Shown piece by piece: positions 47,764 to 50,461 of a stretch of DNA of 64,000 bases. The first letter of the stretch is position 1; every line of letters begins with the position of its first letter. The position numbers were made by a program, and so were the translations under genes. The notes below the pieces were generated by a model. It was not told the DNA's origin, did not search any database, and saw only the letters and a list, made by a program, of their open reading frames with translations. Source of the DNA: Polyangiaceae bacterium (GTDB lineage Bacteria > Myxococcota_A > Polyangia > Polyangiales > Polyangiaceae); NCBI GenBank assembly GCA_050287085.1, contig JBNKBE010000024.1, forward strand, positions 30,283 through 94,282, written 5' to 3'.

Positions 47764-48045
47764 TTGGCCAGGGAACGTGCATCGACAGAGCGAGCGGCCG
47801 ACGCCGCGAACGAGCTGAAGGCGATCCGGGAACGGGTCGTCGCCCTCGAGAAGCGTCTGCGCGATGAGGCCTCGCCCGAGGCGGTCGCCGAGCTGCAGAA
47901 GGAGGTCGAGTCGCTGACGCGCGTGCTCACGGAGCTCGCCGAGGCACCTCCAACCGCTTCTCCTGAGCCCTGGCCCCGAGACCTCAACAGCCAAGCCGCC
48001 GATGCGACCTGGGGCGGCGACCCGGAGGGCCTCCGCGGTGGCTGA
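47764..48045 (+). CDS. Small coiled-coil protein ending in WPRDLN motif
   Basis: SD GGAGG + TTG start; heptad pattern. Confidence 0.6.
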   Translation: MARERASTERAADAANELKAIRERVVALEKRLRDEASPEAVAELQKEVESLTRVLTELAEAPPTASPEPWPRDLNSQAADATWGGDPEGLRGG

Positions 48046-50461
48046 CCTCGAGCAAGCCCTCGCCAGCGCCCGAGAGGTGCTGGCCTTGTTCGGGGCCGAC
48101 GTCCTCCAGAAGAACATCTGGGGCTCGCCGATGGGCAAGACCCACCTGGCGCGCCGCATCGTCGCCGAGATCCCCGAGCACCGGGTCTACGTCGAGCCCT
48201 TCGCCGGCGGCGGCAAGATCCTGTTCACCAAGGACCCGTCCGAGGTGGAGGTCGTCGCGGACCTCGACCCCGAGATTGCGTTCGCCTTCAAGTTCACCAA
48301 GTCGATCACGCCCGAGCAGATCGCGGCGCTGCGGCGCAAGAAGTGGGTCGGCGACAAGGCGCATTTCCGCAAGCTCGAGCAGTCCGCGGTGCCCGATGAC
48401 GACCTCGAGCGCTTCTACCGCTTCGCCTACCTGTCGCGCTTCTCCTTCAACAAGCTCCGGCGCGGCACGATGCCCGACAAGAACGTCGGCGTGCAGGCTC
48501 GCTTCGTCGACAAGCTGGAGCGGCATGCCCCGCGCCTCCGCAAGGTGCGGGTACGCCACACCGACTACGAGCAGGTCATCGACGAGTTCGATGGGCCTGA
48601 CACATTCTTCTTCCTCGACCCGCCCTACGCTGGCTACGACGCCGACGTCCGCGCCGGGTCCGGCCACCGTGAGTGGGACGAAGCCCGCTTTGCGGAGGTG
48701 CTGCGGAAGGTCCGCGGCAAGTTCCTGTGCACCTACGGGCTGCGCGGCGACAAGGAGCTGTTCAATGGCTTCAACGTCCGCCGCTGGCGTCACGCCTCGG
48801 GCGTCGGCACCAAGCAAGGCGTCGGGCTGCGTCCTGGCGTCACCCTGGTCGCCTCCAACTACGACCCCGACAAGGTCCGCCGATTCCAGGTCGCGGTGTC
48901 GAAGACCATCTGGGGCTCGCCCGCCGGCAAGAAGCGTCTCGCCGATCGCTTGGCGGCGATGCTTCCAGCCCACAAGACCTACGTCGAGCCCTTCGCCGGC
49001 AGCGCTGCGGTGCTGTTCGCCAAGGACCCGGCCGAGGTCGAGGCCATCGGCGACGCCGACCTCGAGATCGCCGATGCGTACCGCACCATCAAGCGCCTGA
49101 ACCGCGGCCAGCTCGATCGGCTGCGGCGCATGAGCTGGACCGGCGACAAGGCGACGTTCAAGCGGCTCCTCGACGAGTCCCCGAGCGACGACGTCCAGAA
49201 GCTGCACCGCTTCCTCTATCTGACCCACTTCTCCTACGGAAAGCTGCGCGGCCGCAGCTTCAATCCGGGGAGCGCCGGCGTCGAAGCACGCACCCTCGAT
49301 CGCATCGAGGCCTTCGCGCCGCGGCTCAAGAACGTCCGCATCTACGGCGGCGACTACGAGAAGCTCGTCCGCAAGTACGACGCCAAGGACACCGTCTTCT
49401 TCTTCGACCCGCCGTACGCCGGCTACAACGTCGACGTCGGCGAGAGCGACTTCGACGAGGAGCGCTTCTTCGCGCTGCTCAAGTCGCTCAAGGGCAAGTT
49501 CCTCCTGACGTACGGGGTGCGCGGGAAGCTGCCCGGTCTGCTCAAGGAGGCCGGCTTCACCATCAAGCGCATCCGCACCCCTCGCAGCATCAGCGCCATG
49601 CGCGGCGTCGGGGGCTCGTCGGTGCTGACCCAGCTCGTGGTCGCGAACTACGACCTGGTCGGTAAGGCCGACGAGCTGGAGTCCTGGGACGGACAGCTCA
49701 CCTTGGGCGACAGCCCGAAGCCCACCGCAACCGACGCTTCTGTCGACAAGGCCGAGTGGACCCGGGCGTTCATCAACGACCTGCCCGACAGCGCGTTCCT
49801 GTTCATCGAGGACGGCGGCCAGAAAGACGAGGACGGCAAGACCGTGCCTCGCAGCCTCCGGCACTTCCCGGTACGCAGCGAAACCGGCGAGCTCGACCTG
49901 CCGCACCTGCGCAACGCCATCGCGCGCATCCCCCAGAGCCGCATCGCGGGCGTCACGGCTGAACGCCTCCATGAGCTGCAGGCCGAAGCACGACGTCTGC
50001 TCGCCGAGGCGCAGGGCGAGACCAAGCGTGACCCCAATGCTGCGCCGTTCGCCAAGTCCATCCCGCTCATCAAGGGTGTGGATCCGAGCGACGAGCGCTT
50101 CGTGCTCGGCATCGTGCTCGAGCCCGAGGTGGTCGACGCGCAAGGCGACATCTACTCGCCCGAGGAGATCCGTCAGGCCGCCCACCGCTTCATGGAGGAG
50201 TTCGGCGGTCTCGGCTTCATGCACCGCATGCGGGTGAACGGCCAGGTGAAGGTCCTGGAGAGCTACGTCTCGCCCGTCGACTTCACCCTGGGCGACGCCA
50301 CCGTCCGCAAGGGCACCTGGCTGCTCGCCGTCCGCATCCTGTCCGACACGCTCTGGGAGCAGGTGAAGACGGGTGAGCTGACCGGTTTCTCCATCGGCGG
50401 CTCCGCTCGGCGTGTACCCGAGCCCGAGGCGACCGCCGAACCCCAGAAGGAGGCCGCGTGA
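48038..50461 (+). CDS. Polyprotein: Dam-family MTase x2 + small helical domain + XkdF-type prohead serine protease
   Basis: Two copies of YVEPFAG (motif I) and DPPY (motif IV); [24 protein letters not shown] domain; GIVLEP..DAQGD..MH..KGTW..TGFSIGG protease. Confidence 0.88.

Follow-up and report, generated by a model that had tools for sequence, protein, structure and literature searches.

Tandem Dam-like methyltransferases fused to an XkdF prohead protease in a Polyangiaceae prophage: a candidate capsid-cargo polyprotein

Phage polyvalent proteins carry assemblin-like peptidases at their C-termini, which probably process them during assembly (Iyer et al. 2017, PMC5512222), and a Nudix domain fused to a capsid-processing serine peptidase has been described as probable injected cargo (PMC9503650). 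As these papers, of 2017 and 2022, respectively, state it, the concept of cargo attached to a head peptidase is already in print as a prediction. DarB of phage P1 is a head-borne methylase-helicase with an anti-restriction role in cis, and is the precedent for a packaged methylase, though its mechanism is unsettled (PMC5512222). T4 provides the precedent for anti-restriction cargo that is trimmed by a protease and ejected (PMC9958956).

The window, a stretch of 64 000 nucleotides from a Polyangiaceae contig (GenBank accession number JBNKBE010000024.1), contains one ORF in which two Dam-like domains and a small domain precede an XkdF protease (Table 1). This was the reading of the initial annotation, and it is borne out by the ORF, by Pfam and by the order of the genes. 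The ORF has a GTG start with GGAGG upstream, zero internal stops and a coding-type GC3 of 0.76–1.0 in its frame. Pfam recovers MethyltransfD12 as two stretches (E 7e-35) and Peptidase_S78_2/XkdF (E 4e-31). The methyltransferase motifs that had been quoted were confirmed at the positions in Table 1, and a further quoted motif is present at 50384, in the protease part. The head operon is of myophage type and runs from terminase through portal, MuF, fusion and scaffold-like gene to capsid, with neck, sheath, tube and tape measure downstream. The fusion ORF is the sole XkdF match in the genome (tblastn). The prophage element apparently begins near a tRNA-Asn gene (13338–13413), and a serine recombinase and a primase lie on its left side.

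Table 1. Features of the fusion ORF and its head operon, with positions in the window
Feature	Position	Strand	Remarks
Fusion ORF: leader, Dam1, Dam2, small module, XkdF protease core	48038..50461	+	807 aa
N-terminal leader	48038..48112	+	25 aa, ends VLQK; predicted cut after K25
Dam1, D12-family amino-methyltransferase	48113..48904	+	motif I (YVEPFAGGG) 48188, DPPY 48617; predicted product 30 kDa, to VSK289
Dam2	48905..49666	+	45 % identical to Dam1; motif I (YVEPFAGSA) 48980, DPPY 49406; predicted product 28 kDa, to VGK543
Small module	49751..50056	+	~90 aa, preceded by VDK571; confident fold, no Pfam hit
XkdF prohead protease core	50075..50458	+	D700, H729 (50222) and S785 (50390) invariant; stops just past serine loop
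Scaffold-like gene	50458..51312	+	N-terminal hairpin (~50479–50571) corresponds to the last element missing from the protease; C-terminal WPLDLN motif
Major capsid protein	51340..52278	+	ILEK/A at K12; K in 37/39 homologues
Portal	44299..46110	+	ILK/A at K19; K in 27/31 homologues
MuF-like minor head protein	46635..47714	+	VAK/A at K34; K in 37/40 homologues
Terminase large subunit (context)	41477..43003	+	Pfam
93-aa ORF	47764..48045	+	ends WPRDLN, which repeats the motif at the C-terminus of the scaffold; from sequence

The fusion is genuine. An assembly artefact, which had been named as a possible objection, was ruled out: the same architecture is found in three other MAG loci, 94–97 % identical over the query region; a further genome (G023) holds the full ORF with 98 % identity across residues 2–807; and the Dam1/Dam2, Dam2/small-module and fusion/scaffold junctions are each spanned by contigs of sequencing runs X8 and X2. 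In the RNA run (X15), short related contigs alone were found, and expression of the fusion was not evident. A long ORF on the opposite strand (47984–50224) was treated as a shadow of the high GC3 of the plus-strand frame.

The closest named relatives are for the most part Myxococcota MAGs and isolates, and the family is also present in cultured Myxococcus and Corallococcus strains. No cultured phage covering 80 % of the fusion was found in INPHARED. When the C-terminal 248 aa were used as query, 1693 proteins matched; among the 120 listed matches that were inspected, 105 carry one to three Dam domains ahead of XkdF. In the other direction, 100 of the best 150 representatives matching the Dam profile have XkdF in the same chain. 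Other cargo occupies the Dam slot too, namely a DNA-ligase fold, InPase, NUDIX, DHH, 2H and AdoMet decarboxylase. The domain-architecture search proposed in the initial annotation thus recovered both the D12 and XkdF fusions and other cargo. In three loci (L245 4671–5843, L248 4644–5816 and L250 885–3071), members of the same Dam clade are encoded by genes of their own, located between MuF and an S78 protease, and begin with a long leader that has a Lys site at its end. In many GenBank records, XkdF genes that stand alone in Pakpunavirus and phi92-like phages are labelled 'DNA methyltransferase'. The two that were checked encode 155–159 aa (for example L313 3899–4366), and phrog_1530, which has the same label, matches the XkdF domain. 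The label was probably carried over from Dam-XkdF fusions.

Dam1 and Dam2 have the motif order X-I…IV, with FxGxG and DPPY present. They score 121 bits with the D12 profile PF02086 (cut-off 22), 136 with TIGR00571 (cut-off 115) when the two domains are summed, and 44 bits with PRK10904 (cut-off 441). Their best match among solved structures is 7m6b (E 1e-19), which we take to be M.CbeI. M.CbeI is a DPPY enzyme annotated as D12 that makes m4C (PMC3425538). Adenine is the likely modified base of Dam1 and Dam2, but with this enzyme as best match the label 'adenine' is not established. In a FastTree phylogeny of 174 Dam domains, with group labels set by hand and a sample biased by the queries, a branch with SH 82 separates off 20 stand-alone phage Dams, and the XkdF-fused domains are intermixed with 12 domains encoded in the head operons of phages that have other proteases.

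The XkdF part has the conserved His and Ser and matches the PF14550 profile. Its structure model (pLDDT 78) is most similar to residues 26–152 of T4 gp21 (5JBL; Z 7.1, rmsd 3.2, 105 residues aligned), and the VZV protease also matches (Z 4.8). The profile match to S78 (E 2e-7) ends at the serine loop. A complete single-chain protease fold is absent from the fusion: the last hairpin (the EVSLV..AN element), which in S78 proteins follows the serine-loop region, opens the next gene. Of 94 non-redundant loci, 85 have the hairpin on a downstream gene and 2 within the protease chain, and no hairpin was found in the other 7. As for cultured viruses, psiM100 and phage D1 have it in cis, DLP5 has it on the scaffold gene and so, less clearly, does SPA01; it was looked for and not detected in PATM and HSTV-1. 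When only the hairpin was compared, profile against profile, with a small S78 alignment, it fell in the right position but the match was weak (E 0.03, probability 1.6 %). E16 of the hairpin, considered as a possible third catalytic residue, is invariant in alignment A1 and is not kept in psiM100, D1, DLP5 or SPA01.

When the protease core and the scaffold hairpin were modelled together, the predicted complex scored 0.80, and the best control 0.01. The mark applied to this score is reached by 116/157 solved pairs and 2/215 mismatched pairs; the two parts of a split gene can reach it simply by resembling single-chain folds that have been solved, and the score therefore supports, rather than shows, binding. 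Contact agreement between runs was at least 89 %, with partner pLDDT at least 67, and hairpin residues 16–18 adjoin the catalytic serine in the model. Docking of the protease core on the scaffold is, from the modelled complex, quite probable.

Hydrophobic-x-K motifs in the fusion are found at K25, K289, K543, K571 and K673. That such motifs mark the domain borders was claimed initially; they are indeed at those places, but their number within the protein is not unusual (11, against 7.3±2.5 in shuffled sequences), and the loose motif also occurs in non-head proteins. The weight of the motif comes from conservation of its position across relatives. The same pattern near the N-termini of capsid, portal and MuF, also claimed initially, is kept in most homologues (Table 1), in which other lysines are conserved as well. 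In XkdF chains, a hydrophobic-x-K motif lies within 12 aa before 101/105 Dam domains, at offsets of 2–11, compared with 39/156 control windows, and V, I or L occupies P3 in 96 of these 101. The motif also follows 228/331 Dam ends and precedes 166/169 protease cores, counts that have no separate control. Linkers contain 311 such motifs against 41 expected, with no enrichment of the Glu and Arg versions, although the linker figures are in part circular, as related proteins have borders in common. The bodies of the scaffold proteins contain 170 (76 expected).

The residue at the border also differs with the class of protease. In 78 non-redundant copies of the small module, the preceding residue is K in 42/45 cases with XkdF, 4/5 with S78, 0/21 with a Mu-type protease and 3/7 unclassified; without the 7 unclassified cases and the 5 with Met, K is found in 46/47 XkdF or S78 cases and in 0/19 Mu-type cases. 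The Mu label was taken from a local profile, and of the 8 newly labelled proteins checked, 5 matched head proteases in PHROGs. On the small-module tree, this label needs 8 changes, at least 4 of them forced. A phylogenetically independent test of the switch in protease class fails because there are too few pairs, 1 on well-supported branches and 6 on the best tree. One Dam subtype is preceded by K in 20/27 contexts (8/8 in XkdF chains), by E in 6 and by Y in 1. Three of the six cases bordered by E precede protease-capsid genes that are enriched for hydrophobic-x-Glu. In the downstream protease-capsid genes of L252, L256, L259 and L249, the Glu version occurs 13–14 times, against 3–4.5 expected, and the Lys version is far less enriched or not enriched. 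Thus, Lys is found with XkdF and S78, a hydrophobic residue with Mu-type proteases and Glu in Glu-code phages; as the border residue follows the protease class, it is best read as the P1 site. The suggestion that the Lys sites are prohead-protease sites has therefore gained comparative support, both from the conserved borders and from the swap with protease class. HK97 gp4 cuts after Lys103. T4-type proteases have Glu cleavage codes (PMC5694885). From these comparisons of sequences, the XkdF protease very likely cleaves after Lys.

Our main reading, to which we assign a probability of roughly 0.6, is that the fusion is a capsid-cargo polyprotein that docks on the scaffold, enters the prohead and releases single methylases, which are ejected with the DNA as anti-restriction proteins. 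The sequence shows that one chain combines two D12 methyltransferases, both intact, with a small head module and with the sole XkdF protease found in the genome. Binding of the scaffold N-terminal hairpin by the protease core would complete the protease fold and would tether the whole chain inside the assembling prohead. The protease would then probably cleave after (V/I/L)-x-Lys, so that capsid, portal, MuF and scaffold are trimmed and the two methyltransferases are released separately, as monomers of 28–30 kDa. The folded monomers would remain in the head, leave it with the DNA and methylate the incoming genome ahead of host restriction. The two domains probably differ in target, which would widen the protection. 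The split protease supplies a route for loading that the earlier reading was without. Retention of the methylases in the head is fairly likely; in T4, gp21 was undetected in mature heads in one study (PMC5694885), and cargo linked to a protease therefore need not persist.

Alternatively, the methyltransferases may do their work within the producing cell, either on late concatemeric DNA or during packaging, in which case the fusion would ensure late expression, after which a broad, possibly toxic methylase is locked in the head or destroyed and nothing useful is ejected. Broad-specificity methylases encoded by late phage genes at the mom position are known (Hia5, Hin1523 and Nma1821; PMC3299994), and in alignments, the hairpin with which EcoDam reads GATC is ~5 residues shorter in the fused Dams, which makes GATC specificity doubtful. 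The cut motif is not avoided in the Dam cores either: 183 were observed and 191 expected, a count at chance that gives no sign of cargo avoiding the motif, and ALLK/S482 sits within Dam2. However, late expression needs no fusion, as a free late gene would suffice, and this explanation does not account for candidate cut sites at both Dam ends that track the protease class even where the head-operon Dam is a separate gene. DNA packaging is also far faster than Dam turnover, and the co-cargo domains NUDIX, DHH, 2H and InPase suit action after injection. We regard action confined to the producing cell as unlikely.

The domains could also be packaged and ejected for a purpose other than shielding from restriction, such as DNA binding, or methylation of regulatory sites of host or phage after entry. 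Several of the co-cargo domains have unrelated activities and, though DarB is packaged, its mechanism is itself a proposal (PMC5512222). However, the SAM-binding and DPPY motifs are strictly conserved, with motif I kept in 127/133 and motif IV in 126/133 fused Dam domains, and the many subtypes stacked per chain fit an arms race with varied restriction systems. dN/dS is 0.01–0.12 relative to four close relatives (L081, L082, L083 and L096) and 0.14–0.4 relative to more distant orthologues, for which dS is less reliable. With intact motifs and low dN/dS, the fused methylases look catalytically competent. Another task after entry is improbable.

The initial annotation had compared the pair with M.FokI, in which case the Dam domains would stay joined and each would methylate one strand of an asymmetric site. 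The layout is tandem, and the two domains, with the identity given in Table 1, differ in their target-region sequences. However, the 261 non-redundant fusions contain one Dam domain in 188, two in 46, three in 26 and none in 1 (in which none passed the length filter), the Dam2 type is the only one in 67 fusions and has several partners elsewhere, subtypes mix freely, and a conserved Lys site, a candidate cut site, separates the domains. The analogy is therefore unsupported and a joined unit very improbable. Similarly remote is an uncut chain with Lys as a structural or DNA-binding residue, or a protease made from an internal start, as, despite the abundance of Lys in these proteins, the many other conserved capsid lysines and an in-frame GTG at codon 681, the distance from Lys to the Dam core varies, the border residue swaps with protease class, and the internal start raised as an objection lacks a conserved signal, with SD-plus-start signals before the protease core scattered and at background level (10/58 fusions, 22/174 control windows).

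The small module is a mobile head module that occurs on proteases of the XkdF, S78 or Mu type or on scaffold proteins, and is 55–65 % identical across unrelated phages, with 564 viral loci matched. Searches of Pfam and PHROG gave no hit for it, and DUF6582 was the sole lead (0.84). Comparison with solved structures gave no convincing fold (best Z 6.4, over helices). It matches two unnamed viral models and, weakly, a halovirus prohead protease protein, and could be a packaging tag or bind a small ligand. Small ORFs of the WPxDLN type precede the fusion in many relatives, and in 5 proteins the motif is fused before Dam; that of the 93-aa ORF is possibly a capsid-binding tag.

Phage methylases are normally expressed after entry, and so race with restriction enzymes. 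A methylase packaged pre-folded would sidestep this race. A broader proposal, which we put at somewhat less than even odds, is of a widespread cargo-loading system in which the protease is completed only on meeting the scaffold hairpin, and is hence active inside the prohead; a swappable train of enzymes is freed by a Lys code; and a dedicated clade of Dam-family enzymes serves as injected cargo, has its cut site rewritten (Lys, Glu or hydrophobic) on a change of protease class and is stacked 1–3 deep to methylate entering DNA against the restriction systems of the next host. Such a system would amount to genome methylation delivered by the virion and independent of the host, and would offer a natural platform for loading enzymes into heads. 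The family yields exact predictions, namely the cut sites, the fragment sizes and a protease that needs a 30-residue partner. As it also occurs in cultured Myxococcus and Corallococcus, the 2017 prediction becomes directly testable. Maturation cuts after Lys could be overlooked because tryptic proteomics cannot tell them from cuts by trypsin.

Additional loci were recorded. Adjoining the tRNA-Asn gene at the left end of the element is a type I restriction-modification operon (13765–22346, minus strand) encoding HsdM, HsdS and HsdR, into which genes for a DarT and Macro-domain pair have been inserted. A 687-aa QueC-like protein (weak hit) is beside an uncharacterised 256-aa ORF and a LexA-like repressor (32402–35232, minus strand), possibly as a defence pair. 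Immediately ahead of the gene for the terminase large subunit, and in the opposite orientation, is a small tyrosine-recombinase gene (40860–41474, minus strand), and an ORF of 376 aa without a Pfam hit (58461–59591, minus strand) lies on the opposite strand between tail tube and baseplate hub. On the host side, a gene (7906–9744, minus strand) encodes HARE-HTH and Mrr-type nuclease domains. A second, broken copy of the terminase gene, 93–97 % identical to that in Table 1, is on contig C13 of genome G000.

Among known systems, the phage polyvalent proteins resemble the fusion in joining at least 2 disparate domains per chain, in being late virion genes and in having a C-terminal assemblin-like peptidase. 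Packaging and release of cargo is predicted for both, and InPase is found in relatives of the fusion. However, the methylases of polyvalent proteins are EcoKI/TaqI-like and have an SF2 helicase (PMC5512222), whereas those of the fusion are D12/Dam-like, with no helicase. The hallmark module (EcoKI/TaqI-like MTase, SF2 helicase and LPD36, or MPTase), which is typical of polyvalent proteins but not obligatory, is absent from the fusion, for which Pfam finds D12 and XkdF alone. A cleavage code, as proposed for the Dam-XkdF family, and a split protease do not appear in the accessible portions of PMC5512222 and PMC9503650. DarB of P1 likewise has a methyltransferase domain that is predicted to be carried in the head and to shield the DNA as it enters, as proposed for the fusion cargo, but is of another methylase class, is fused to an SF2 helicase, which the fusion lacks, and is not joined to a prohead protease.

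T4 gp21, with the internal proteins and Alt as cargo, and SPN3US gp245 share the protease fold of the XkdF core, and in these phages, as proposed for those with the fusion, the places where capsid, scaffold and ejected cargo are cut carry a short motif (PMC9958956, PMC5694885). However, as described there, both proteases cleave after Glu and are single chains, and a leader, rather than fusion to the protease, directs their cargo. The same His/Ser core and the same hairpin motif are found in psiM100 ORF12, in the Clostridium phage D1 protein (PF14550, PHROG 3017) and in HK97-type S78 proteases. The hairpin follows the core in psiM100 and precedes it in D1, in cis in both, whereas that of Dam-XkdF is on the next gene, and unlike Dam-XkdF, the psiM100 and D1 proteins carry no methylases. 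The fused Dams share motif order, FxGxG and DPPY with EcoDam, M.DpnII-1, 7m6b and the stand-alone phiE125 gp27, but are only ~30 % identical to the D12/Dam family, have a shortened GATC hairpin and form a separate head-operon group in the tree. In the papers covered by a full-text literature search, no description of a Dam-XkdF fusion, of the Lys code or of the split protease was found. Relative to those papers, the Dam-XkdF architecture, with its proposed Lys code and with the hairpin split onto the scaffold gene, is a variant of the predicted peptidase cargo.
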